DNA from: a virus
Length of the DNA: 11,347 nucleotides
Virus genome (UHGV): UHGV-1347074
Direction: 5' to 3' (one strand)
Shown here: piece after piece, positions 1-11,347 of the stretch
How positions within the stretch are numbered: position 1 is the first letter of the stretch
How the letters are laid out: each line of letters begins with the position of its first letter
Made by a program: the position numbers and the translations under genes
The notes under the pieces: generated by a model
Told to the model about the DNA's origin: nothing
The model's input: the letters and a program-made list of their open reading frames with translations, nothing else
Database searches by the model: none

Positions 1-57
1 ATATAACGAGCCCCTCCTAAGGGCTAGTTGCAGGTTCGATTCCTGCAGGGGACACCA
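1..57 (+). tRNA. argW: tRNA-Arg (anticodon CCU), 3' portion only; the 5' end lies upstream of the window
   Basis: Anticodon stem-loop agccc/CTCCTAA/gggct at 9-25 with anticodon CCT at 16-18; T-arm gcagg/TTCGATT/cctgc at 30-46; acceptor 3' strand plus discriminator and CCA ending at 57. Matches from memory the E. coli argW sequence, with one possible difference. Confidence 0.85.
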
Positions 58-217
58 TGAACACCTCCCACAAAGTCCAACTTAGTACGTAACTCATTGA
101 TTTTAATTCATACATCTTATTTTATTCGTCCAGTAAAGTGCCATTATTTCTAATGGAATCTATACATCTTTGCGTATAACATTGTGTATAACTGAGTTCG
201 ATCTTTTTTCTATACAC

Positions 218-1393
218 ATGCTGCTATCTGACATCCAAATAAAAAGAGCAAAACCGAAGGACAAACCCTATACGCTTAACGATGGTATGGGACTATCACT
301 CCTCATCGACACAGCGGGCAGCAAAGGCTGGCGTTTCCGCTATCGCTTTGCAGGTAAGCCAAAGATGATTTCCTTTGGTGTATATGGCGATGTGTCGTTG
401 GCACAGGCACGTACCAAACGTGATGAAGCGCGTTCGATGTTGGCCAAAGGGATCAACCCAAGTGAAGCCAGAAAGGCAGATAAGATTGCTTTGCAGTTCG
501 CACATGAGAACAGCTTTGAGTCTGTGGCCAGAGAATGGCACTCATCGAAAAAAGCCACCTGGTCAGAGGGGTATGCAAAAGAGGTTCTCAATTGTATGGA
601 AAAGGATATTTTTCCTTTTATCGGCCAGCGCCCAATTGAGCAGATTGAACCACTAGAGCTGCTAACCGTCCTGCAAAAAATAGAGAAAAGAGGTGCGCTA
701 GAGCAAACCAGCAAGATCCGCCGCCGTTGTGGTGAAGTGCTTCGTTATGCTGTTGCCACTGGCAGAGCAAAGTATAATTTTGCACCCGATTTAGCTATCG
801 CACTCAACAAACCTAAAACTCAACACTTCCCGTTCCTGACTGAAAGCGAGTTGCCCGAGTTCGTCAATGCTCTGGATAACTATCAGGGCAGTTTAGTCAC
901 CAAATACGCCACGCAGCTGTTGATGCTAACAGGCGTGCGAACAATTGAACTACGTGCAGCGGAATGGGCTGAGTTTGATTTAGATAATGCCTTATGGGAG
1001 ATCCCCAAAGAACGGATGAAGAAACGCCGCCCCCATCTGGTTCCGTTATCTACTCAGGCGATCAGCATCCTGAAAAAGCTGCAAGAAATAACTGGGAATT
1101 ACAGCCTCGTTTTCCCTGGGCGAAACGACGTCAGGAAACCAATGAGCGAAGCCAGTATCAACAAAGTGATAAAGCTGCTTGGCTATCATGGTCGGTTAAC
1201 GGGTCACGGCTTCAGGCATACCATGAGTACTATTTTGCATGAACATGGTTTTGAAAGCGCCTGGATTGAAATGCAGCTTGCGCATGTTGATAAGAACTCT
1301 ATTAGAGGGACTTATAATCATGCGCAGTATTTAGAACCGAGAAGAAAAATGCTAACGTTTTATAGCAACCTTATATATAAATCATATATATGA
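218..1393 (+). CDS. int: Tyrosine site-specific integrase, P4 family (about 392 aa from the first ATG)
   Basis: N-terminus from the ATG at 218 (MLLSDIQIKRAKPKDKPYTLNDGMGLSLLIDTAGSKGWRFRY...) matches the conserved P4-type integrase N-terminal domain. C-terminal catalytic region has HGFRH ... LAHVDKNSIRGTYNHAQYLEPRR (box II and tyrosine). The ORF-track start at 170 is a TTG and was not used. Confidence 0.9.
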   Translation: MLLSDIQIKRAKPKDKPYTLNDGMGLSLLIDTAGSKGWRFRYRFAGKPKMISFGVYGDVSLAQARTKRDEARSMLAKGINPSEARKADKIALQFAHENSFESVAREWHSSKKATWSEGYAKEVLNCMEKDIFPFIGQRPIEQIEPLELLTVLQKIEKRGALEQTSKIRRRCGEVLRYAVATGRAKYNFAPDLAIALNKPKTQHFPFLTESELPEFVNALDNYQGSLVTKYATQLLMLTGVRTIELRAAEWAEFDLDNALWEIPKERMKKRRPHLVPLSTQAISILKKLQEITGNYSLVFPGRNDVRKPMSEASINKVIKLLGYHGRLTGHGFRHTMSTILHEHGFESAWIEMQLAHVDKNSIRGTYNHAQYLEPRRKMLTFYSNLIYKSYI

Positions 1394-2443
1394 TCTTTTT
1401 ATATCCGTTAAAATAGTATCTACATCGGTAAATGTTATGTTTATACAATCAATTAACTCAAATACTTGCTCTTCAATAAGAATAAAATCATTTTTTGGTC
1501 CAGTACTAATTTTTATACCAAGATCCCCAACTTTCTCCAATAAACTAACCTGATGATTTGTGTAAATATATTTTCCTCCGGGCTCTGTTATCTCTCTATT
1601 TGCAGAAAAAACAACATCAGCTATCGCATCAACTTTTAGCTTATACGAAGAAGAAACAGTAACATCACCTTTCTTCGAAAGTGGGAATATTAAACTATAC
1701 CATTTATATATATTCACCTTGTCTGGAGAAATAAACTTTCGTTTGTTTATTTCTGCATTCATATAATCTCTAAACATATTTAGATGTGAAATATGATTTG
1801 TTAGATTACTATTTTTTACGCCAGCTTTATAAGTCAACAACGCTATTCCAATACCACCAACGGTGGTGATCAATGTAATCAACCATGCTATTGACTGAAG
1901 GATAATTGATATGCCATTAAATCTACCAAAAAAGTAAGAAACACACTTATCTGATAGGCAAAATTCTTTCACATACAGTTTTTCATTATAGATCGTAATG
2001 CATAGTATGATGAGACAAGAAATGATACCAAGCATAAAAATAGCAAGGATAGTAATAACCAAGACTTTTAGCTCTTTTTCTTTCCCAAAATCCCCCAAAG
2101 GTAATTTATTAACCAAAGAACTAGTAATTTTATAAATATAAATAATAGTAGTTTTAATGCTCTTTATTAAAGCTGAAGGAGAATTAAGAACAAAGCAATA
2201 CAATGTATTAGCTAAAAATTTAACTCGTATAAAAATAAAGCTTCCTCTAATCTTTACCTTCCTATATTTTCTTTTTAGTTCAAATACTATTTTTCTACCT
2301 TCATCTGTCCCCAGAAGAACTAATCCAATATGTGATACTATATCCCTTAAGCTAACTCCCACCCCAATAAACGCCTTATGAAAAGATGACAAACTGCGTT
2401 TGAGAGATTCATAATTAGATTTTATTTCAGCTAAGCTACCCAT
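1382..2443 (-). CDS. Predicted two-transmembrane-helix membrane protein, candidate retron effector (353 aa)
   Basis: Two long hydrophobic segments (VLVITILAIFMLGIISCLIILCITIY and ISIILQSIAWLITLITTVGGIGIALLTY) separated by a short loop. Its ATG shares one base with the RT stop (TGATG on the - strand), indicating translational coupling. Very AT-rich, like the RT gene. Confidence 0.75.
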   Translation of the reverse strand: MGSLAEIKSNYESLKRSLSSFHKAFIGVGVSLRDIVSHIGLVLLGTDEGRKIVFELKRKYRKVKIRGSFIFIRVKFLANTLYCFVLNSPSALIKSIKTTIIYIYKITSSLVNKLPLGDFGKEKELKVLVITILAIFMLGIISCLIILCITIYNEKLYVKEFCLSDKCVSYFFGRFNGISIILQSIAWLITLITTVGGIGIALLTYKAGVKNSNLTNHISHLNMFRDYMNAEINKRKFISPDKVNIYKWYSLIFPLSKKGDVTVSSSYKLKVDAIADVVFSANREITEPGGKYIYTNHQVSLLEKVGDLGIKISTGPKNDFILIEEQVFELIDCINITFTDVDTILTDIKRSYI

Positions 2444-3639
2444 CAGTATTTAACCTTTTGAAGACGATCTCTGAATCCTTTTTCAATCAATAAAAAACCG
2501 GGAGTTCTTCTTAAAATAATAAGATTATATAGTGTAAGATCATATTTTTTCTTGTAATAATCTTTTTTAGAGTTCCCACCTTTATAGGAGTTCTCTAAAA
2601 ATTTAATAGCCCTATCAATTTTAACAATATCTCTTTTTGCTGCCTTAGGCTGAATATCTTTTAGTCTTAATGATAGCACCTTATATTTATTGTGATTAAG
2701 CCTACCTAATTTGTTCACGCGCCCAACACATCTATTATACTCTATCCTATAGGCTACACTTGTTATTGAGTTATTTTTCTTTGCCAGTTTTTCTAAATTA
2801 TGCACAGACGCTCGAATACGTCCGACCTCATCAGAAGGTAAGCGTGGTTCATTAAATGAGATTCGTAACCCATGTACTTTTAATGATTCAGTTGATATAT
2901 TGTGTACTTGAGTTTTATCTTCATTTATAGGTAAATCTTTACCAGCAAGCATATCTTTAATATGATCTAAAATCTGATTCATATTGTAGTTAACTAATTT
3001 TGATGAAACTGTAATATCATCTACCAGTCTCGTATAGACTAATTTCTTCCTTTCTGCTCTATTTACAATGTCAGATTCAACATCAAAAAGACATAACGAT
3101 GCTATATAACTAGAGGTCAAAGCGCCCTGAACAATAGTGTCGTCATAACAGCATATATCAGTTAAGTACTCTAATGCTTCGCCTTTAAATTTTAAAACCT
3201 TAGAAAATATACTATATACTATATCTCTATGAATATTATCAAAAAAATTTTTGATATCTACTTTAAGTATTGTTTTTGCATTACAGTGCTTACGGGCACA
3301 AGCGATATAATGCCGCTCAATTCCTTTTTTTTTCTCATCTTTATTGGTTGGAACTGAGCCATAAATGTAATCTGGCCATAATATCAGCTCTTTAAAGATC
3401 CTATTGTTTATCCTTTTTTGAATACGCCTTATTAGCTGGTGTGGATCATAAACATCTCTAAGTTCACCATTTATTTTTTTTACTTGCTTTTTCTTGTATC
3501 TTTGGTGGGAAGGCATTGCAATAGCAGTTTTTAAATCTGCTAACGTAATATCCAAGCAAGAACTTAAAGATTGCAAAGATCTGAGAGATTGTGCACCAGG
3601 TTTTTTTATAGGATTACGGGCAACCATAATATCTTCCAT
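2443..3639 (-). CDS. Reverse transcriptase, retron-type (398 aa)
   Basis: RT motifs readable in the translation: ILKVDIKNFFDNI (motif A aspartate), ICCYDDTIVQGALTSSYIASL (motif B), YTRLVDDITVSS (motif C) and a downstream KVHGLRIS at the position of the retron VTG motif. Overall pattern resembles Ec86-type retron RTs from memory. Confidence 0.85.
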   Translation of the reverse strand: MEDIMVARNPIKKPGAQSLRSLQSLSSCLDITLADLKTAIAMPSHQRYKKKQVKKINGELRDVYDPHQLIRRIQKRINNRIFKELILWPDYIYGSVPTNKDEKKKGIERHYIACARKHCNAKTILKVDIKNFFDNIHRDIVYSIFSKVLKFKGEALEYLTDICCYDDTIVQGALTSSYIASLCLFDVESDIVNRAERKKLVYTRLVDDITVSSKLVNYNMNQILDHIKDMLAGKDLPINEDKTQVHNISTESLKVHGLRISFNEPRLPSDEVGRIRASVHNLEKLAKKNNSITSVAYRIEYNRCVGRVNKLGRLNHNKYKVLSLRLKDIQPKAAKRDIVKIDRAIKFLENSYKGGNSKKDYYKKKYDLTLYNLIILRRTPGFLLIEKGFRDRLQKVKY

Positions 3640-3960
3640 TCCATGAAATCAAAATTACATCCGGCCTCCCTCATACTCAAGTGGGCAAAAGAATAGGGTT
3701 GCTTTCGTCAAAAGCCCTTAGCAACTGCCCCTATTCTTTGACCGGACGCAATTGAGGACGGCTACAGCCCCATCGTTGCCGGCCAGGCTTTGTGGGGGTT
3801 CCGTTCCAGCCTATGCTACTGCATAGGCGCTCTCACTTTTCTGTTGCGAGAGCGGAAGCTAAGAAACTATAAACTTTGACTGCCACAGGCAAACGGAACG
3901 TTTGCGCGAAGCAGATATTACCATTGATGTTTCTAGTTTCAAGACTTAACTAGCATTTTT
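3640..3960 (-). ncRNA. Candidate retron non-coding RNA (msr/msd) upstream of the RT; boundaries approximate
   Basis: No ORF of 60 aa or more on either strand. Cluster of stable hairpins: 11-bp stem 3688-3698/3729-3739; 8-bp stem with tetraloop 3809-3816/3821-3828; 7-bp stem 3828-3834/3848-3854; 7-bp stem with GAA triloop 3889-3895/3899-3905. G+C is higher than in the adjacent RT gene. The a1/a2 inverted repeats could not be located. Confidence 0.35.
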
Positions 3961-4299
3961 CACATCACCTACCAAAATTGTAATGGACTGACCAAAAAGG
4001 CACTACACCGCACCCGCCTGCGGTTTTCATATCACTAAAATTTTTCAGTTGTGATTTTTTACAAACGATACCGCCAGCCCGCGCCCGTGCTGGGGATACA
4101 CTGCGAGGCAGGAACTGAAAAGAATGAAAAGAAATTCAGCTTTTTTCAGTTTTACTGTCCGTAGTATCTATGGCCTGAATACGCAACTCTATGATATTAA
4201 ATGGATAATTATTTTTAGGTGTGTGATTTTATGAAGTTTTGGAAACATGAAAAACATAACAAATTGAAAAATAATAATTTTATGTCCGTATAAACTGAA

Positions 4300-4348: not shown

Positions 4349-4621
4349 TTACCCATTCTTTTGCGCAGCCAGCAGCAACTTTAAAGCCTTTTCCCGTTCC
4401 TCGGGTGGAATTGCATCAATTAGCTCTTTAACCCTCCCCTGCCCGTTCAGCGCGCTTGGACTAACGGAATGGGAGAAAGCAACATTCATCACAAACGAGT
4501 GACCGCACTCCACATTAGAGCAATAGCAGTACACATCGTACAGTTGTGGGTGTTTCCTGTTTGTTTTACCTATCCGCGCTACTGCCTGACATGTGGGGCA
4601 GTACATTCTCATCATCTTCAT
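4349..4621 (-). CDS. Ogr/Delta-family zinc-finger late-gene transcriptional activator (single-domain, about 85-90 aa)
   Basis: C-x2-C-x22-C-x4-C spacing (MYCPTCQ ... YCSNVECGHSF) as in P2 Ogr / P4 Delta. The start is ambiguous among several in-frame ATGs (4621 to 4606); homology favours MYCPTCQ. Confidence 0.85.
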   Translation of the reverse strand: MKMMRMYCPTCQAVARIGKTNRKHPQLYDVYCYCSNVECGHSFVMNVAFSHSVSPSALNGQGRVKELIDAIPPEEREKALKLLLAAQKNG

Positions 4622-4687: not shown

Positions 4688-4880
4688 GTGTAACACTGGT
4701 AACACGTGTAACGCTATTGATTTAAAAGGATTTAATCTGTTACCAGTTAGCAAAATCAAGAGGTAACGCGTGGTAACACACCATTTTTTGTTACCTCTGT
4801 TACCAGTCAGTATTTTTGACTGGTAACACTGAAGAACCGTATCAGTAGCGGGTGTTACCTCTGTTACCAGTGTTACCTCA
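4688..4880. repeat. Iteron cluster, candidate replication origin (P4 ori/crr-like) for the adjacent primase-helicase
   Basis: At least 12 copies of GGTAAC(A/G)C / its complement TGTTACC in both orientations. An 18-bp direct repeat TGTTACCTCTGTTACCAG occurs at 4789-4806 and 4853-4870. An 11-bp perfect inverted repeat lies at 4799-4809 / 4817-4827. No ORF spans the region. Confidence 0.6.
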
Positions 4881-4903: not shown

Positions 4904-7591
4904 TTACTCAGGTTCGGCGCTTCCCAGTACCTGTGTATTGAACTGGTACACACGTTTAAGCCCTATTTCTGGCAGGCGAATGCTGTTTTGCGTCCGGCCA
5001 TCTTCACCGGGTTTCAGCCAGCCCGCGTCCACACACAACCTGGCCACCTTACGCGAATCAAATCCCTTACAGATCTCCTTCCAGCCTGACGGGAGAACGT
5101 AGAACGTCACAACCGGCTCTGTCACGTTGTCTCCTTTATCGACTTTTCTGAATCCCATCATTGAAACAGGCCGGTTCCTGTCGTCATTCCAGTCAGCAAA
5201 CCGACTGAACTGATTACGCGTCATGAAGTCCCGTACCTGTTCAAGTGCCGCTTTATCTTCCTGATTAGCTGTATGGCCCCGGTCAGCCATCCATGCAGCC
5301 AGACAACTTTGAGCGGCACGAAAGGCCTCTCCCTCCGGCCATCCTGTGATGCCCGCTTTTGTGGCCAGCTCCCCGGCCATAGCAACCAGAGCAAAACGGG
5401 TAACAGCCCGGCCAACCTGATTCCCGGCATTTTCCGGCGTCAGCCTCCGGGTGTACTCTTTCAATAAGGCTTTCGCCTGGCTGGTCAGTTCCGGCAGATC
5501 AGCGGTCAGGCAATGCAGCCAGTCGCGGAATGGTGCACCATGATAATGCGCTACATGCTGCTCAAGATGCTCAGCCAGGGTTTTCCCGCTACTGAAGCCA
5601 TGAAGTTCTTCAAACACGCCATACTTGCCCGAATCGCTTGGGATCTGGATCATTCTGACCTCAACCCCGGCATACGTACGTTCCCCGGCGCTTGCCGCAT
5701 GTTCTACCAGTGACAGTTCCCCGGTGGACAGAAACAACAGATTCCAGCGGTTGGTTTCCCTTACAGAACCATCTGTTCTGGCTCTGGCTTTGCCCTGCCC
5801 GTTAGCCAGCATATAAGCGATATTCCCCGCCTCCCTGCCGTCAACCTCCCGGATTTCATCCAGCATCAGCGTGGCATCATTGCGGCGGCTCGCCGTTCCT
5901 TCTAAGGCATTCCCCGTCGCCCGCCACGTATGCCAGAAATCTGTTCCACCACATACTGATGCAGCCACTTTCATCGTCGTGGTTTTGCCGTCCGTCGATT
6001 CCCCTTTGAGGTGATAACCTCCACCGCCGATACCAACCAGTTTCAGAAGGGGGGCAGCAAATGCCAGGCTCACCGCAAAGGCCAGACGGGCATTCTTTAT
6101 GCAGTAACGGCCAAGATTTTCACGCCATTCCTCTGATGTACCGCTGACACGAAAATCACGCCCCTGCACGCTCGATGTTTGTAAGATGACTGACTGGGCT
6201 TCGCGCCCTATCACTTCATCCTGGAGAACGTAAACCCCGCCGTGCCAGCCCGTTTTATTTACACAGGTAACTTTTCTGTCCGGTTTACACAGCGAGATAT
6301 ATTCCATCAGGAATGCTCTGGCCATACCGTTAATGTTGATGTAAGAAAGCCCGTTAACCAGCAGAACGCGGCGCAGTTCTTCCCCGCTGCCACCCAGCAT
6401 CTCCATCGGCATTGCCCATTTACGGCTGTTTCCGTTGGTATCTTCCCATTCCAGCAAACGCCCGTAATTACTCCCATCAGCATCACTGGTGATTGCCGTC
6501 ACCCGCAACGGGCTGCAAATTTTGATATTGCGTATCTCCGTATCACCATCAGACTTATTAACCAGCTTGTCGTACCACAAATATTCTTTTGTCAGCCGGA
6601 ACCCTTCTGGTAAACGGGTCTGCCCTTTGCCATGCAGCGTCATTTCTTCACGAAAGGCATCTCTCGCCCGTTCTTTCCCCACTTCCTGCCGATAGTCATC
6701 CCAGTCAGCCTTATGGCGTACCGGAGGGAGCGTTACCCAGCCATCCACCGCTTTGGCGGCTTTCTCTGCCTGAATACGCCCGGTGTTTTCTTTCCCGTCA
6801 GCCAGATCATTATCTCCGGCCAGAATGATCCGGGTTTCCGGCCAGCGTTTTCGGATCTGCTCCGTCACCTTCAGTAAATTGGTGGCAGCGACAGCCGCCA
6901 CGATCCATCCTTCAGTCAGCAGACTGACGGTAAGCGCCGTGGCAAAACCCTCAGTGATAATCACCTGTTCAGGTGTTTCAGCGGGTATATCGGTCAGGGC
7001 AATGAATGCGCCAGACAGCTGGCTACCGGGCAGCAGACTTTTATCCCCGTCAGGATTGATAAGCTGACCACCGGTAATATTCCCGGAAATATCCGTCAAC
7101 GGCAGCAGTAATGAACCGGAGGAAAATGTTATTCCGGCCAGATTCAAAGGTTGTGACAGCAAGGGAAGTGAATACCCGTGTAAGCCCTTGTTTGTCAGAT
7201 AGACCGGCTCACCATTGCAGGACTGCTGTCTGAGTCTGGTATATCGCTCCGCACCCGCTTCTTTTCCTGTGGCCTTTTTCCTAGCGGGCAAAGCGGGCTT
7301 CTCCTGTATTTCTGGTAATGCAAGCGCCTCAGATACCATCCCGGCGGCTTCTTTTATCTTTCTTCCTGTCACCAGACGAACCAGATCAAGACCATCGCCA
7401 TGACCGCACTGATTACAAAACCACGTCCCACGCCCCGCTTTATCGTCCAGTCGAAAGCGATCTTTGCCACCACAGGCAGGGCAAGCCCCATGATGTCCTG
7501 CGGACGGTACTTTGATACCTAATGCTGACAGGATATAAGGCCAGCGCCCAATCGCAGCCCCGGAAATAGTGGATACAGACAGTGTTTTCAC
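4904..7591 (-). CDS. Alpha-type DNA primase-helicase (895 aa): zinc-binding domain + TOPRIM primase + P-loop helicase
   Basis: N-terminal CPACGGKDRFR ... WFCNQCGHGDG zinc-binding motif; TOPRIM-like ITEGFATA ... ILAGDND; Walker A GESTDGKT. GTG start at 7591 preceded by AGGAGG (7-nt spacer) and overlapping the upstream gene's stop (GTGA). Confidence 0.9.
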   Translation of the reverse strand: MKTLSVSTISGAAIGRWPYILSALGIKVPSAGHHGACPACGGKDRFRLDDKAGRGTWFCNQCGHGDGLDLVRLVTGRKIKEAAGMVSEALALPEIQEKPALPARKKATGKEAGAERYTRLRQQSCNGEPVYLTNKGLHGYSLPLLSQPLNLAGITFSSGSLLLPLTDISGNITGGQLINPDGDKSLLPGSQLSGAFIALTDIPAETPEQVIITEGFATALTVSLLTEGWIVAAVAATNLLKVTEQIRKRWPETRIILAGDNDLADGKENTGRIQAEKAAKAVDGWVTLPPVRHKADWDDYRQEVGKERARDAFREEMTLHGKGQTRLPEGFRLTKEYLWYDKLVNKSDGDTEIRNIKICSPLRVTAITSDADGSNYGRLLEWEDTNGNSRKWAMPMEMLGGSGEELRRVLLVNGLSYININGMARAFLMEYISLCKPDRKVTCVNKTGWHGGVYVLQDEVIGREAQSVILQTSSVQGRDFRVSGTSEEWRENLGRYCIKNARLAFAVSLAFAAPLLKLVGIGGGGYHLKGESTDGKTTTMKVAASVCGGTDFWHTWRATGNALEGTASRRNDATLMLDEIREVDGREAGNIAYMLANGQGKARARTDGSVRETNRWNLLFLSTGELSLVEHAASAGERTYAGVEVRMIQIPSDSGKYGVFEELHGFSSGKTLAEHLEQHVAHYHGAPFRDWLHCLTADLPELTSQAKALLKEYTRRLTPENAGNQVGRAVTRFALVAMAGELATKAGITGWPEGEAFRAAQSCLAAWMADRGHTANQEDKAALEQVRDFMTRNQFSRFADWNDDRNRPVSMMGFRKVDKGDNVTEPVVTFYVLPSGWKEICKGFDSRKVARLCVDAGWLKPGEDGRTQNSIRLPEIGLKRVYQFNTQVLGSAEPE

Positions 7592-7998
7592 AGCAGCACC
7601 TCCTGACCTTCCGGCTTCACAAATTCAAAACCTTCGGGTAGTTCGCCATCAGGTGCACCGAAAATAATATCCCGGTAAACCTCACGCATCTCTGTGACAC
7701 CAAAAACTGACAGGCGAATATTTTCTGACATAAAGCCCGGTTTAAGCATTTTTTCCAGTTTCTCTGCGGCCAGTATGCAACCAGCATCAGCCCCAAACTC
7801 ATTCACCCACGGCATTTCAATATGGTAAATAATATTGCTCACCACTTTTTCGTGGGTGAGTTCTATTCGTTCGCCATCTTCAATATAAACAGGTTCATTA
7901 TGAACACGCTCCATTAAGGAAATGAATGCATCAGCAATGTAGTACCGTAAGACTGCTGTTCGTAAAGCATGCGCCTTTAAATTTTGATTATTATTCAT
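7588..7998 (-). CDS. Hypothetical protein (136 aa from the ATG at 7998), first gene upstream of the primase
   Basis: ATG at 7998 preceded by GGGAGAG; start overlaps the stop of the upstream 78-aa gene (ATGAATAA) and the stop overlaps the primase GTG. The longer TTG-initiated ORF to 8058 was not used. Confidence 0.65.
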   Translation of the reverse strand: MNNNQNLKAHALRTAVLRYYIADAFISLMERVHNEPVYIEDGERIELTHEKVVSNIIYHIEMPWVNEFGADAGCILAAEKLEKMLKPGFMSENIRLSVFGVTEMREVYRDIIFGAPDGELPEGFEFVKPEGQEVLL

Positions 7999-8227
7999 CG
8001 CGCATCTCTCCCTTAATTGTGCTGGTTTCCTTAACAACGCCATCAAGTTGTTCGGCAATACAGGCCACTAAAGCCGCAGCGCCTTCCGCTGAAACAGTTC
8101 TCGCTCCATTCACTGTGGGAACGGACAGGACCTCTGCAAGAAACTCACTGGCCAGTGCCGCCCGTAACAGACGACTCTCACCCAGTTCGCTCAATATGCA
8201 GCCTTGCTTAAAATTCATGGATTTCAT
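7991..8227 (-). CDS. Hypothetical small protein (78 aa)
   Basis: ATG at 8227 preceded by GGAGGTG with a 5-nt spacer; overlaps the upstream gene stop (ATGA) and the downstream gene start. No recognisable motif. Confidence 0.6.
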   Translation of the reverse strand: MKSMNFKQGCILSELGESRLLRAALASEFLAEVLSVPTVNGARTVSAEGAAALVACIAEQLDGVVKETSTIKGEMRDE

Positions 8228-8427
8228 GCAACCACCTCCCCGGCACTTTTCACAGGGATGTGGGCAGCAAAGCTCAGGATAAATTCAGTGGCAAGTTTAA
8301 GGCGTGCAGCATGCTCGCAGTCTGCGATTACACGCACAGGACGTGGACGGGCATCACGGTCTGTACGGCGAACAGCCAGAAAGACAAAGATAAATTCAGG
8401 GTGAGATAAAGCAGGGACTGTAGCCAT
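8224..8427 (-). CDS. Hypothetical small protein (67 aa), first ORF of the replication operon (positionally analogous to P4 kil, function unknown)
   Basis: ATG at 8427 preceded by GGAGG with an 8-nt spacer. The ORF track extends this frame to 8814 (196 aa), but that extension crosses a repeat- and hairpin-rich leader and looks non-coding. Confidence 0.5.
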   Translation of the reverse strand: MATVPALSHPEFIFVFLAVRRTDRDARPRPVRVIADCEHAARLKLATEFILSFAAHIPVKSAGEVVA

Positions 8428-8429
8428 AA

Positions 8430-8725
8430 TGGCAACCTCCGTTAGATAGCGGGTAACGCTACCACCGGAGTTCCTACGCTCATGGGTGGTAGCCCAGACG
8501 GGGGTAGGAATACCGGCTCTAACGGATACCGGCCAGCCCGAAAGCTGCCCCGCCTGGACTACCATAATTCTGATGATGTGGCGTAAAAAATAAAAACATG
8601 CAGTCAGCCACCACACCATAAATTTTAGGTGAGTCAAAGCTACGACACAAAAAAACACGCCTGGCGCGTGTTGTGTCGCCGTTAGATTACACGGGTTCCT
8701 ACGCCCGGCTGCCGATTTTGCGGCA
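8430..8725 (-). ncRNA. Candidate structured leader / immunity RNA region (P4 CI-RNA-like; Rfam C4-type), boundaries approximate
   Basis: Direct repeats CCGTTAGAT...GTTCCTACGC at 8439-8479 and 8679-8708. An internal segment (8499-8516, containing GTAGGAA) is largely complementary to both copies. Strong hairpins at 8458-8466/8485-8493 and 8643-8678. Confidence 0.3.
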
Positions 8726-8733
8726 ACCTTTAA

Positions 8734-8763
8734 ACTATATCCCGCGCATTCCTGGTGAGGCAA
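8734..8763 (-). promoter_or_regulatory. Candidate sigma70 promoter for the leader and replication operon
   Basis: On the - strand, TTGCCT (-35; + strand 8758-8763), an 18-bp spacer, then TATAGT (-10; + strand 8734-8739). Predicted start near 8726, just upstream of the first repeat copy. Confidence 0.3.
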
Positions 8764-8866
8764 GAAATTTATAACCGAAAACTGAACATTGCCTGGATTA
8801 ATTAACGCTGGCATGCTTAAGCCTCTGCTTAAAAATAGTTCTTCATTTTTCCTGATGCTGTAAACG

Positions 8867-8901: not shown

Positions 8902-9906
8902 TCAATCAGCAAACGTCAGGGCGCTCTCATCAACAGCCGCGTACAGTTCAGGTTCACCGAGTGCATAGCCTTCATTGCGCAGGTAGGAATGTACGTATTC
9001 ACTGTTTTCATCATCAAACTCAGCACGAAACCACCGTGTTATCGCCTGAGTGTAAATATGCAGATTATTCAGCGTCGTTACTGCCAGACGCTTACCCGGC
9101 ATAAACGGGGGAATAAACGCAAAGCGGCCAGCAACAGAACTTGTAGCCATCTGTGCAGCATTCACATCAGCCGGGCGGTCTGCGGCATTAAATAACTTCA
9201 GGCGTTGATGTGCTGCCAGCTCTGCCCCAACCAGAACAACCAGACGGGGATCTTCACGAAACTGCTCAGCAATAAGCTCAGTAATCAGATGGTTGGCCAT
9301 CGCATCAATATTTTTCCAGGTGCCAGTCTCTCCCAGCGTGACAGGCTCAGAGATGATTTGCTTTCCGTTCCCGTAGGCTTTCGCCAGTGCATGCCAGCCA
9401 ATATTGACATCCTCGCCTTTTTTATTGATTTCCGGGTTTGTAGTATTTGCAATCGACACACCATTGAAACCGACCCGCAGCATGTCCAGCGCATATGCCT
9501 GGGCAAAAAAGCTCTCAACCGTTTTCTCAAACCCATCCGGCACGCCGGTATGGTAAATATGAGACATATCGGAATAGCTGATCCGGGCGCAGGTATCCGT
9601 CTCTGTCAGAAAGAACTCCGTACCATTGATTGCCATTTTTTTGTGGAAACGGCCACCATCCACACGTCCGGTATGCAGTTCACTGGCACCAATATTGACT
9701 GCATTACCTGACACGGCGTTAACATCACGTAGCGTGATATTTTTAATAAGCCACCCGGATTCCAGAATTGACGTACGCAGTATATTTTCAGTGGGTTCGC
9801 TTAATGCAAAGCGTCTTTTTGATTCCTCCTGATAGTTAGTGCCAGTAACGAATTTATTATGATAACGACGTGCTGCGTCCGGCCTTTCAGTTTTGAAGGC
9901 ATACAT
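8902..9906 (-). CDS. P2 GpN-like major capsid protein homolog (334 aa)
   Basis: Several blocks align by eye with P2 gpN as recalled from memory: GFNGV, DV.(I/V)GW, EDPRLVVLVGAELAA (vs EDPDLVVIVGRQLLA) and TTLNNLHIY (vs TKLENLSIY). ATG at 9906 preceded by GGTGA. Confidence 0.7.
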   Translation of the reverse strand: MYAFKTERPDAARRYHNKFVTGTNYQEESKRRFALSEPTENILRTSILESGWLIKNITLRDVNAVSGNAVNIGASELHTGRVDGGRFHKKMAINGTEFFLTETDTCARISYSDMSHIYHTGVPDGFEKTVESFFAQAYALDMLRVGFNGVSIANTTNPEINKKGEDVNIGWHALAKAYGNGKQIISEPVTLGETGTWKNIDAMANHLITELIAEQFREDPRLVVLVGAELAAHQRLKLFNAADRPADVNAAQMATSSVAGRFAFIPPFMPGKRLAVTTLNNLHIYTQAITRWFRAEFDDENSEYVHSYLRNEGYALGEPELYAAVDESALTFAD

Positions 9907-9929: not shown

Positions 9930-10790
9930 TTAAGAAAAGATTTTATTTTTGTACTCAGTAACCCGATTGTATTTCATTACATGCTCAACATAATCCCGGT
10001 CACTTACGACTGAACGTAATACATAATTATCTGCTCGATAGTACTCCCTGTAAGCCATAGCTCTTGCCATTCCACCGTTATTTAATACATAACGATCAGT
10101 TGGAACGCTACAACGGCTAATAATTTCATTCACGGAATCAGACAAAGATTTGAGTGCGTCTGTAATAAATTTAATATCACGGACAACGTCACCGTCATTA
10201 AATACAGAAATAAAATCAGCAGGGATCTGGCCGGATTGAGGAAATATGTTCAGTAAACGCTTCTCGACTCCCTTACCAATGTAGTTCACTTCATCGGCCA
10301 GTACGCCCGGTAAAAGCTTGATCGTGCTCAGTCGGCTATGTTGCTCATTCAGCCGGGAAACAGCCAGATGGTAACACCGTTCAGCATCCGCTCGTTCAGC
10401 ATGCCCCGTTTTATTCGTTTTGGCTTCAGCAATGCTACTGACGCCGTTTTTTGAGAATGTGCTTTTCCATGCAACTTCCGCATTTGTCACTTCACGCTGC
10501 CGGAAAGATAACTCTTCCTCTTCCTGACGACACAACTGGGCATAACGGCTTAGGAGCAGGTTGATCTCATTCGCCACAGCTTCCGTATCAGGTACTGTTA
10601 ACCCCGTAAGTGAATACAGCTTTTCACCTTTAGCACGCAGCTTATTCAGTGAATAGATTTCGATAATACGCACAATACAGGCTGTGTCGCTATGAGTTTC
10701 TTTAAATGGTCTTACTTTGTAACTATCTAACACCGACACATGTTCGTTCTTAATTGATGCCAATTTTTTCTTAAAAACATTGTCAACCAT
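9930..10790 (-). CDS. Hypothetical protein (286 aa), immediately upstream of and co-oriented with the capsid homolog
   Basis: ATG at 10790 preceded by GAGGTG; 23-nt gap to the capsid gene. Lower G+C than the flanking capsid and primase genes. No motif recognised; not similar by eye to P2 gpO. Confidence 0.8.
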   Translation of the reverse strand: MVDNVFKKKLASIKNEHVSVLDSYKVRPFKETHSDTACIVRIIEIYSLNKLRAKGEKLYSLTGLTVPDTEAVANEINLLLSRYAQLCRQEEEELSFRQREVTNAEVAWKSTFSKNGVSSIAEAKTNKTGHAERADAERCYHLAVSRLNEQHSRLSTIKLLPGVLADEVNYIGKGVEKRLLNIFPQSGQIPADFISVFNDGDVVRDIKFITDALKSLSDSVNEIISRCSVPTDRYVLNNGGMARAMAYREYYRADNYVLRSVVSDRDYVEHVMKYNRVTEYKNKIFS

Positions 10791-10807: not shown

Positions 10808-11035
10808 TTAGGAGTTTAATTTTCTATTGAGAATATTCTTCTCTATCCATTCATTAACTTCATGCTCCACCCATGCAACAGAACGAGAACCGATAGAAAC
10901 TTGGTTCGGAAATTCATCATTCTTTATCTTTAGATAAATTGTTGACTTGGGTAAGCCAGTCAAATTAATCACTTCTGATATTCTCAGAAGTCTATATCTT
11001 TTTTGGGGTGCGTTTTCCCGAGGCAATAAGCTCAT
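10808..11035 (-). CDS. alpA: AlpA-family prophage regulatory protein (HTH; excisionase/transcriptional regulator-like), about 75 aa
   Basis: Pattern RLLRISEVINLTGLPKSTIY ... FP ... G.RSVAWVEHEVNEWI matches the AlpA family. ATG at 11035 preceded by GAAGGA; the ORF-track start at 11050 is a GTG five codons upstream. Confidence 0.8.
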   Translation of the reverse strand: MSLLPRENAPQKRYRLLRISEVINLTGLPKSTIYLKIKNDEFPNQVSIGSRSVAWVEHEVNEWIEKNILNRKLNS

Positions 11036-11145
11036 GGCTATGTCCTTCACATTAGATATTTATACTAAGACTTAATTAGTCTCTATTGGGTGTATATATA
11101 CTTGCACAGAAGAATTAATACGTAAAGAATGACACTTTCAAACTT

Positions 11146-11290: not shown

Positions 11291-11325
11291 GGCTGGGCTG
11301 GGCTGGGCTGGGCTGGGCTGGGCTT
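11291..11325. repeat. Pentanucleotide simple-sequence repeat (GGCTG)6 plus one imperfect unit
   Basis: Six perfect tandem GGCTG units at 11291-11320 followed by GGCTT; read directly from the sequence. Confidence 0.9.
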
Positions 11326-11347
11326 GCCCGGGAGACAGAATGTGGAG

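Follow-up and report, generated by a model that had tools for sequence, protein, structure and literature searches.

The virus sequence UHGV-1347074, a stretch of 11,347 nucleotides (nt) that we refer to in its entirety as the window, holds on its minus strand at 8902-9906 a satellite-encoded gene for a P2-family major capsid protein (MCP) of the HK97 fold. The open reading frame (ORF) is unbroken over this interval, encodes 334 amino acids (aa), and has a Shine-Dalgarno-like AAGGTG preceding its ATG. A preliminary description, made from the sequence alone, had related this product to the P2 capsid protein gpN and proposed a profile search and a structure prediction as checks, and both uphold the relationship. 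The product matched the Pfam profile Phage_cap_P2 (PF05125) at E 9.4e-67 and 225.8 bits, against a cut-off of 27, over profile positions 15-325 of 327, and PHROG 70 ("major head protein") at E 6.9e-85, and sequence comparison to solved chains recovered the phiRSA1 capsid (7oz4, E 5.9e-20) and P2 gpN from the P4 procapsid (7jw1, E 4.5e-15). These matches are far above chance and confirm that the ORF encodes a full-length P2-family MCP.

The HK97 fold is seen in an AlphaFold2 model built from 39 homologs (pLDDT 80.9, pTM 0.80), and is thus that of a prediction and not of a solved structure. Foldseek searches with this model placed gpN in the P4 procapsid (7jw1) first, at E 1.8e-22 and TM 0.71-0.78, followed by phiRSA1 7oz4, so the product has both a capsid-family match and a capsid fold rather than an unrelated one; lower-ranked matches were encapsulins, other HK97 capsids, and SaPIbov5 Ccm/CP (7rwz) at TM 0.41-0.50. 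Identity to P2 gpN itself is only ~21%. The nearest phage MCPs are those of ESSI-2-like Peduoviridae (ESSI-2, ESSI2_ev015/040/129/239, and vB_YenM_324), at 48-51% identity over 91-96% of length. Satellite MCPs and MCPs of this phage type, to which the likely helpers belong (see below), are collinear, with 93 columns conserved in both and nine fixed differences; they have the same length and domain layout, no domain is lost, and indels comprise a few residues near the termini.

The window corresponds almost exactly to one integrative element, which comprises the following features.

1-54, plus strand: 3' part of a tRNA-Arg gene (argW), forming attL (Rfam tRNA match cut at its 5' end)
170-1393, plus strand: tyrosine integrase, P4-int-like (Pfam Arm-DNA-bind_3, Phage_int_M, and Phage_integrase; 39% to P4 Int, E 2e-89)
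1382-3880, minus strand: variable defence hotspot with a type IV retron (PADLOC)
1382-2443, minus strand: retron 2TM effector (PADLOC 2TM_IV, E 2e-87)
2443-3639, minus strand: retron reverse transcriptase (PADLOC RT_IV, E 4e-182)
3640-3880, minus strand: structured region upstream of the reverse transcriptase, candidate msr/msd (RNA fold z = -3.4)
4000-4155, minus strand: cos site of ESSI-2-like phages (core GCAGGCGGGTGCGGTGTAGTGCC at 4022-4000, then ~150 nt of cos-flank homology)
4349-4621, minus strand: Ogr/Delta-type zinc-finger late activator (Pfam Ogr_Delta, E 5e-14; PHROG 603, E 2e-31)
4698-4877, no strand assigned: iteron cluster, probable ori/crr (TGTTACC six times, GGTAACA three times; downstream of the primase gene)
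4904-7591, minus strand: alpha-like primase/replicase with zinc ribbon, Toprim, and DUF927 (Pfam; N-terminal 310 aa 38% to P4 alpha, E 2e-52)
7588-8058, minus strand: small gene like DUF5375/P4 orf106 (PHROG 5991, E 5e-38; RefSeq "hypothetical")
7991-8227, minus strand: small conserved gene, 78 aa (PHROG 38507, E 2e-53; RefSeq "hypothetical")
8224-8814, minus strand: P4-type immunity region, inside an "Icd-like/Ash" ORF (Rfam; Pfam Phage_ASH, E 3e-34)
8482-8569, minus strand: C4 antisense RNA (Rfam C4, 81 bits, E 5e-15)
8650-8727, minus strand: isrK-like RNA with terminator (Rfam isrK, 71.8 bits)
8688-8740, minus strand: a1/b1 targets (Rfam c4-a1b1, 43.7 bits, just under the gathering score of 46.7)
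8902-9906, minus strand: the MCP gene (Pfam, PHROG, solved chains, AlphaFold2/Foldseek)
9930-10790, minus strand: orf286, all-alpha and satellite-specific, directly upstream of the MCP gene, candidate assembly or size-determining partner
10808-11050, minus strand: AlpA-family regulator/excisionase (Pfam Phage_AlpA, E 6e-20; 46% to P4 orf88)

All genes from alpA through ogr are co-oriented, and alpA is the first gene of an alpA-orf286-MCP string with gaps of 17 nt (alpA to orf286) and 23 nt (orf286 to MCP). The true start of alpA is likely the ATG at 11035, and its product in RefSeq is 75 aa. No terminase, portal, scaffold, tail, sid, or psu gene was found in the element within the window. The presence of an Ogr/Delta activator and the absence of recognizable sid and psu had both been noted in the preliminary description and hold up here, since P4 Sid, Psu, and epsilon gave best tblastn E values of 2.4, 0.59, and 0.34, and hhalign of orf286 against Sid and Psu gave probabilities of at most 0.5%. 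No attL/attR repeat pair was found inside the window by repeat search, and the matching attR repeat ATTCCTGCAGGGGACACCA lies just beyond its right end. In Escherichia coli A5 and EC958, the island is located between yfdC-tRNA-Arg(argW) and the csc/dsd genes, and attR, a 19-20 nt repeat of the tRNA 3' end, lies ~450-500 nt past the alpA start, which sets the size of the satellite element at 10.7-11.5 kb. About seven copies of a GGCTG pentanucleotide repeat occupy 11291-11330, between alpA and the expected attR.

The iteron cluster probably serves as ori/crr, by analogy with the P4 record, where ori/crr is annotated with analogous 8-nt type 1 repeats (the P4 type 1 repeat consensus being TGTTCACC). 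The immunity region and its P4 cI counterpart share 71.6% nt identity. RefSeq places at 8224-8814 a 196-aa "host cell division inhibitor Icd-like protein", which is overlaid by the C4, isrK-like, and near-threshold a1/b1 matches, and at least the 5' half of this coding sequence call probably represents RNA genes and is not protein-coding.

With its own int, alpA, alpha, and iterons, a helper-type cos, and neither terL, terS, portal, nor sheath, the element reads as a phage satellite, and its cos site points to the phages that it may parasitize. The preliminary description needs correction with regard to the helper, which is likely not P2: the P2/P4 cos 19-mer (GGCGAGGCGGGGAAAGCAC) is absent from the window at up to three mismatches, and an ESSI-2-like cos core is present. 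When searched by blastn against 50,697 phage records, the window's non-coding stretch matched only end regions of ESSI-2-like phages, at 71-78% identity (Cronobacter ESSI-2, Escherichia ESSI2_ev015/040/129, Yersinia vB_YenM_324, and one unannotated Salmonella phage contig). The 15-mer GCGGGTGCGGTGTAG occurs at both ends of the ESSI-2 record, a terminal repeat suggestive of a cohesive-end signature, and all 23 nt of the core in the window match ESSI-2 across its end, spanning this repeat. Of the 26 satellite loci that we identified (see below), 24 retain the first 19 nt of the core without change and two differ from it by a single substitution each. Two E. coli ESSI-2-like prophages also have these 19 nt unchanged, and in the satellite loci the core always lies 0.4-0.7 kb beyond ogr and before the cargo slot. 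The satellite ogr is ~50% identical to the ogr of ESSI-2-like phages. Because the cos core and flank are common to both, the closest MCPs are found there, the ogr genes are ~50% identical, and the P2/P4 cos is absent, the helpers are likely ESSI-2-like Peduoviridae (genera Seongnamvirus and Quadragintavirus) and not P2 proper. Their genomes measure 28.8-30.9 kb, ~2.7 times the satellite's 10.7-11.5 kb, so the satellite is about one-third of the helper, as P4 is to P2.

Several further observations concern these phages and their ends. The ESSI2_ev015 record NC_049395.1 has at positions 16-48, near its start, an adapter-like stretch TCGTCGGCAGCGTCAGATGTGTATAAGAGACAG, which we take to be a Nextera transposase adapter, joined to the sequence following the cos core, and it ends inside the cos core (...GCAGGCGGGTGC); its start looks like an assembly artefact that incidentally marks the physical DNA end at cos. 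A cos-region search of complete E. coli genomes returned 522 places in 518 genomes, ~450 of them satellite-type at 80-99% identity and 68 at 60-80%, the latter taken as ESSI-2-like prophages (two were checked). Both a satellite and an ESSI-2-like prophage are present in Buttiauxella sp. A111 (L011/L040), Ca. Erwinia dacicola IL (L016/L042), and Xenorhabdus vietnamensis DSM 22392 (L079/L048), making these three assemblies candidate natural satellite-helper pairs. Packaged satellite DNA was not found in the phage records, which hold only helper-type genes, and matches in IMG/VR were mostly 16-65 kb contigs with genome-derived identifiers and not ~11-kb cos-ended molecules.

The satellite family is widespread. 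Of 5426 complete E. coli genomes, 450 (~8%), ST131 strain EC958 among them, carry the 2.4-kb alpA-orf286-MCP segment at 95-99% identity, and always on the chromosome. A scan of GTDB with one genome per species, from which the best 80 loci were taken and classed by tblastn with satellite and phage marker proteins, yielded 26 loci (23 assemblies) of the satellite class, with satellite markers present and terL, portal, terS, and sheath absent. Alpha, ogr, and int were found in these 26 loci and in five loci from four context look-ups, which likewise lack the four phage genes, and alpA was detected in about half. The other MCP loci from the scan were complete ESSI-2-like prophages, in which neither alpha nor orf286 was found, and in no locus searched did Sid or Psu give a match at E<=1e-3. 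Beyond E. coli, the family occurs in Citrobacter, Kosakonia, Yersinia, Pectobacterium, Xenorhabdus, Proteus, Providencia, and other Enterobacterales. Two records from "Vagococcus sp. WN89Y" (P0016, P0205) carry an MCP at 72% and an orf286 relative at 49% identity; because all other members come from Enterobacterales, this assembly is probably mislabelled or contaminated.

Gene order is conserved across this range. In Yersinia ruckeri, Providencia rettgeri, and Pectobacterium carotovorum, the order is alpA, a 278-285-aa protein with no Pfam match, MCP, the gpO-like protein described below (gpO_N), an optional Ash, alpha(DUF927), Ogr/Delta, defence cargo, and int. In a Salmonella locus the order is kept, with an integrase of another kind and without gpO_N or a detectable alpA. 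This locus (L007) belongs with L015, L016, and L018 to a third sub-lineage, in which the MCP is accompanied by a ~311-aa orf286 relative (~30% identical), and it further has an Int_N integrase, a "Derepression" (PF25738) gene weakly like P4 epsilon, and a 162-aa Ogr/Delta-like protein. These differences show that modules have been exchanged around a capsid module that stays the same.

Neighbour-joining trees rooted with P2 gpN recovered the 29 satellite MCPs included as monophyletic, apart from all prophage MCPs, in 100 of 100 bootstraps. Clade A, which lacks gpO_N, comprises Enterobacteriaceae and one Erwinia, and contains the window MCP, was recovered in 100 of 100, and clade B, which has gpO_N and spans Yersiniaceae, Pectobacteriaceae, Morganellaceae, and Pantoea (genera Yersinia, Pectobacterium, Xenorhabdus, Proteus, Morganella, Providencia, and Pantoea), in 93 of 100. 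The phage MCPs are paraphyletic, and the satellite clade attaches in a ladder-like manner on a tree with a long outgroup branch, its position not being fixed. Identity between satellite and phage MCPs is 36-52% (~45% on average) and within satellites falls to 47%, and the satellite MCP was taken up a single time, long ago, from the helper lineage. Ratios of nonsynonymous to synonymous substitution (dN/dS, by the Nei-Gojobori method) were 0.06-0.18 for satellite MCP pairs versus 0.04-0.13 for phage pairs, and the satellite MCPs are thus under purifying selection. The satellite MCP has been maintained as a full-length capsid subunit, and this selection, with the conserved capsid-family columns, lends indirect support to its predicted assembly into an icosahedral shell.

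The MCP travels with partner proteins. The product of orf286 is predicted to be all-helical (pLDDT 87.1, pTM 0.81), belongs to no Pfam, PHROG, or PADLOC family, and had no match among phage records at a cut-off as loose as E 10. The family has few members, with 109 clusters at 90% identity and 53 representatives in a set of 1.84 billion, and no Pfam domains were found in distant ones. Relatives, down to 23-36% identity, were detected in no prophage locus and in nearly every satellite locus whose sequence reaches upstream of the MCP gene, which they always directly precede, making orf286 a candidate assembly or size-determining partner of the MCP. In clade B, a further 169-177-aa protein, gpO_N, resembles the N-terminal half of gpO, the helper scaffold, at ~50% identity and keeps the residues aligned with P2 gpO D19, H48, and S107, presumably the protease triad, while the C-terminal scaffolding domain is missing. 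With the protease residues kept and the scaffolding C-terminus gone, gpO_N fits a satellite-owned head-assembly kit in which orf28x would stand in place of the scaffold part.

Between int and cos lies the slot that in the window holds the retron (1382-3880), with a GC content of ~30% versus 44-55% elsewhere in the element. The corresponding slots of relatives (L001 5431-6879; L093 6832-8685; L004 16383-18346; L005 16343-18242; L006 15322-16914; L008 9539-11436) hold other cargo: a 482-aa hypothetical protein in E. coli A5; sce7725/sce7726 proteins in EC958 (P4 cII is likewise annotated sce7726); HATPase_c_3 with an uncharacterised protein, or a DndB-like protein, in Yersinia; Kiwa KwaA/KwaB in Providencia; and a retron with an Ec48-type effector in Pectobacterium. 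Since cargo differs among relatives, the satellite lineage has a defence hotspot beside cos, like P4. In two E. coli ESSI-2-like prophages (L091 6001-7596; L092 6001-7391), the cos region lies between the last tail/baseplate gene and a prophage-end cargo gene, which encodes a 411-aa hypothetical protein in one and an AbiH-family abortive-infection protein in the other. Accessory or defence genes appear to be kept beside cos in helper and satellite alike.

Among known satellites, the closest comparison is P4, which cages helper capsomers with Sid and Psu. Like P4, the element is an ~11-kb integrative element at a tRNA gene, about one-third of its helper's genome, with related int (39%), alpha N-terminus (38%), alpA/orf88 (46%), and cI region (57% aa identical). 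Both also have an activator of the Ogr/Delta type, iterons next to the primase gene, the cos of the helper, and a hotspot for defence genes between cos and int; P4 Delta matches the window Ogr/Delta at the Pfam family level only (tblastn E 0.047). Unlike P4, it has the MCP and orf286 module instead of sid, psu, and epsilon, a DUF927-type alpha C-terminus, an ESSI-2-like rather than a P2 cos, and rearranged genes in one co-oriented string from alpA to ogr. Of the seven P4-like markers of Moura de Sousa and Rocha (int, psu, delta, sid, alpA, epsilon/ash, and alpha), five were found by Pfam (integrase, AlpA, alpha primase, the Ash/cI region, and Delta/Ogr), and Sid and Psu were not. Because sid, psu, and a P2 cos are lacking, we refer to a P4-related sister lineage and not to a strict P4-like satellite. 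The preliminary description had suggested a different capsid strategy or a different satellite family; synteny, the MCP clade, and selection bear out the family, and the part played by the MCP can be put forward as a prediction.

A capsid homolog in a satellite is not new in principle, because SaPIbov5 Ccm, the Gram-negative phage-inducible chromosomal islands (PICIs), and the capsid-forming PICIs (cf-PICIs) are precedents. In Staphylococcus aureus, SaPIbov5 Ccm diverts the assembly of its helper phi12 towards small capsids of T=4 and interferes with this phage (PMC8569155, PMC5052747). Like SaPIbov5, the element is a cos-type satellite encoding a homolog of its helper's HK97-fold capsid protein (here 49% to ESSI-2-type MCPs), but lineage and host are unrelated, and the likeness of the MCP to Ccm is at the fold level only (TM 0.41-0.50 to 7rwz). 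SaPIbov5 further exploits a prolate phi12 helper and has no orf286-like partner, Ogr, or P4-type backbone, and the function of Ccm has been demonstrated, whereas that of the window MCP is predicted.

For Gram-negative PICIs, an MCP gene was reported in 21 of 29 reference elements (PMC10111431). These islands (EcCICFT073, PmCI172, and 11capE) resemble the element in having int, alpA, pri with ori downstream, mostly unidirectional genes, and a helper cos. Their capsid genes are lambda E-type or Mu-type with lambdoid or Mu-like helpers, whereas here the MCP is of the P2 family and the helper of Peduoviridae type; int and alpA are adjacent in these PICIs and here stand at opposite ends with attP between; and they have no Ogr/Delta or C4 immunity RNA, while many have terS or rpp, which were not found here. 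The cf-PICIs (e.g., EcCIEDL933) have their own capsid protein and take other virion parts from the helper (PMC10085698; 10.1101/2022.09.08.507074): they encode the MCP, protease, portal, head-tail adaptor and connector, TerS, TerL, and HNH, and only tails are stolen. The comparison with cf-PICIs that the preliminary description proposed thus holds for the possession of a capsid gene and fails for the rest of the head and packaging set, as terL, terS, and portal are absent and the element has the MCP only, plus gpO_N in clade B; because portal, terminase, and connectors are absent, it is not a cf-PICI. In ESSI-2-like phages, by comparison, the MCP gene sits between the scaffold gene (gpO) and terS in complete 29-31 kb genomes, and satellite copies adjoin orf286. 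The apparent novelty lies in the P4-type and Peduoviridae setting and in orf286 as a partner protein. No prior description of the lineage, of any satellite encoding a P2-family MCP, or of orf286 and its family was found in the searchable literature, which leaves subscription journals mostly uncovered, so an earlier account is possible.

Because the MCP is intact, under selection, set in a satellite context, confined to one clade, and accompanied by the helper's cos and the orf286 module, we favour a reading in which it takes part in capsid remodelling. Specifically, we give an even chance to the proposal that the MCP is functional in an integrative cos-type satellite, whose own subunit and orf286 would build procapsids for ~11 kb, with the remaining virion functions coming from the helper. 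On helper infection or induction, the ~11-kb element would excise from argW through int and alpA and replicate from its iterons by the alpha-like primase, the Ogr/Delta homolog would provide cross-talk with helper late transcription, and the helper terminase would package the element at the common cos. The satellite's own capsid subunit with orf286, acting as a scaffold or size determinant, would form procapsids fitting an 11-kb genome instead of relying on a Sid/Psu cage, and these procapsids would probably be smaller and T=4-like. Portal, terminase, head completion, tail, and lysis would be given by the helper, and the gpO protease-scaffold would come from the helper in clade A, with clade B having a maturation protease of its own.

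Several points weigh against this proposal. Portal and terminase are not encoded, and therefore a satellite-only shell would need a foreign portal to nucleate. A genome one-third the helper's size equally allows trimers in full-size heads. Deletion of the capsid gene of EcCICFT073 left interference with lambda unrelieved (PMC6092414). The candidate role of orf286 is suggested by position and co-occurrence, and no relation to any scaffold was detected, hhalign giving probabilities of 0.5% for Sid, 0.4% for Psu, and <1% for the ESSI-2-type scaffold. No Ogr-type operator could be tied to the alpA-orf286-MCP string, which leaves late-promoter control conjectural: the TGT-N12-ACA site is missing upstream of alpA in Yersinia, Providencia, Pectobacterium, and Salmonella relatives and in the phage PO/PP region, and the window lacks the PO/PP dyad of these phages, GTTCGG-N13-CCGAAC. 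Finally, satellite and ESSI-2-like prophage occur together in at most four E. coli genomes versus ~5.6 expected by chance; because P4-like satellites also await incoming helpers, this figure is uninformative, neither supporting nor countering the helper link.

With regard to the operator, a perfect TGT-N12-ACA dyad, which is the P2 Ogr-operator pattern, does lie at 11091-11108, centred 65 nt upstream of the alpA ATG. We rejected it as an Ogr operator: it is not conserved in relatives, and the window has three such sites versus ~2.8 expected by chance, for which reasons it may be fortuitous.

The main alternative, which we hold to be unlikely, while far from negligible, is that of mixed capsids resembling those of Ccm, in which the satellite MCP would form no shell by itself but co-assemble with the helper MCP (e.g., as pentamers), shift assembly to small heads that suit the satellite genome, and block helper packaging. 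SaPIbov5 offers a direct model, since Ccm, homologous to the capsid protein of its helper, takes up the pentamer positions in T=4 procapsids (PMC8569155), and PmCI172 likewise has an MCP homolog and yields small capsids (PMC6092414). The 93 columns and the domain layout that satellite and helper-type MCPs have in common make hetero-assembly conceivable, and the lack of an encoded portal and terminase fits a shell nucleated by the helper. However, the two MCP types are only ~45% identical on average (36-52%), and a dedicated orf286 together with the clade-B protease domain suggests more than a single "wedge" subunit. The sequence data do not separate mixed capsids from shells of the satellite's own.

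Less probable still, and in our view distinctly doubtful, is that the MCP is dispensable for transfer and acts mainly in interference or defence against phages with related capsids (as a dominant-negative subunit that poisons their assembly) or in some other helper-directed role, with the satellite packaged as multimers in normal heads. EcCICFT073 would be the example, since it was packaged at phage length in full-size heads and, as noted, its interference with lambda survived loss of the capsid gene (PMC6092414). Three times 10.7-11.5 kb comes close to the helper genome (~29-31 kb), and the satellite is mostly found in genomes lacking a helper prophage, where host protection would be the selected trait. 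However, the MCP is strictly linked to orf28x (with or without gpO_N) throughout Enterobacterales at phage-like dN/dS, which resembles an assembly module more than a poison, neither the MCP nor orf286 matches a PADLOC defence model, and a poison subunit should track particular helpers and not form one old clade. A decaying leftover of a P2-family prophage with no present function, which might be read from the MCP being the only head gene in the window and from its prophage-type name in automated annotation, is extremely improbable and is effectively ruled out by selection and synteny, as none of the loci examined has a broken reading frame, dN/dS is 0.06-0.18, the gene holds a fixed position in a conserved 10-gene element across many genera, and the MCPs form a monophyletic, deeply divergent clade (to 47% identity) with no other prophage remnants flanking the gene.

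Capsid-size piracy is classically exemplified by P4, whose family current detection tools define through Sid, Psu, and Delta. Remodelling by a satellite-owned MCP and orf286 may represent a third, so far unrecognized route of capsid piracy in the P2/P4 world, a suggestion to which we give somewhat less than an even chance: an old and widespread P4-related lineage, which lost or never possessed a Sid/Psu cage and owns an MCP, a helical scaffold, and ancestrally a gpO protease, would make satellite-specific, probably small capsids on the helper portal, to be filled by the helper terminase. If true, this would be a "semi-capsid-forming" state between P4 and the cf-PICIs, parasitizing ESSI-2-like Peduoviridae.

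Together, these results point to a sizeable sister lineage of P4 with another capsid module and another helper group. With two of the seven P4-like markers missing, the lineage may be misfiled, though its hotspot carries defence systems, and knowledge of its helper and cos bears on predicting the spread of retron, Kiwa, and other defence cargo. The E. coli island and the isolated ESSI2_ev phages offer a tractable system in which to address why many Gram-negative satellites keep a capsid-protein homolog, and whether a diverged subunit and one small helper protein can set capsid size; orf286 and its relatives would represent a novel type of capsid-assembly factor.

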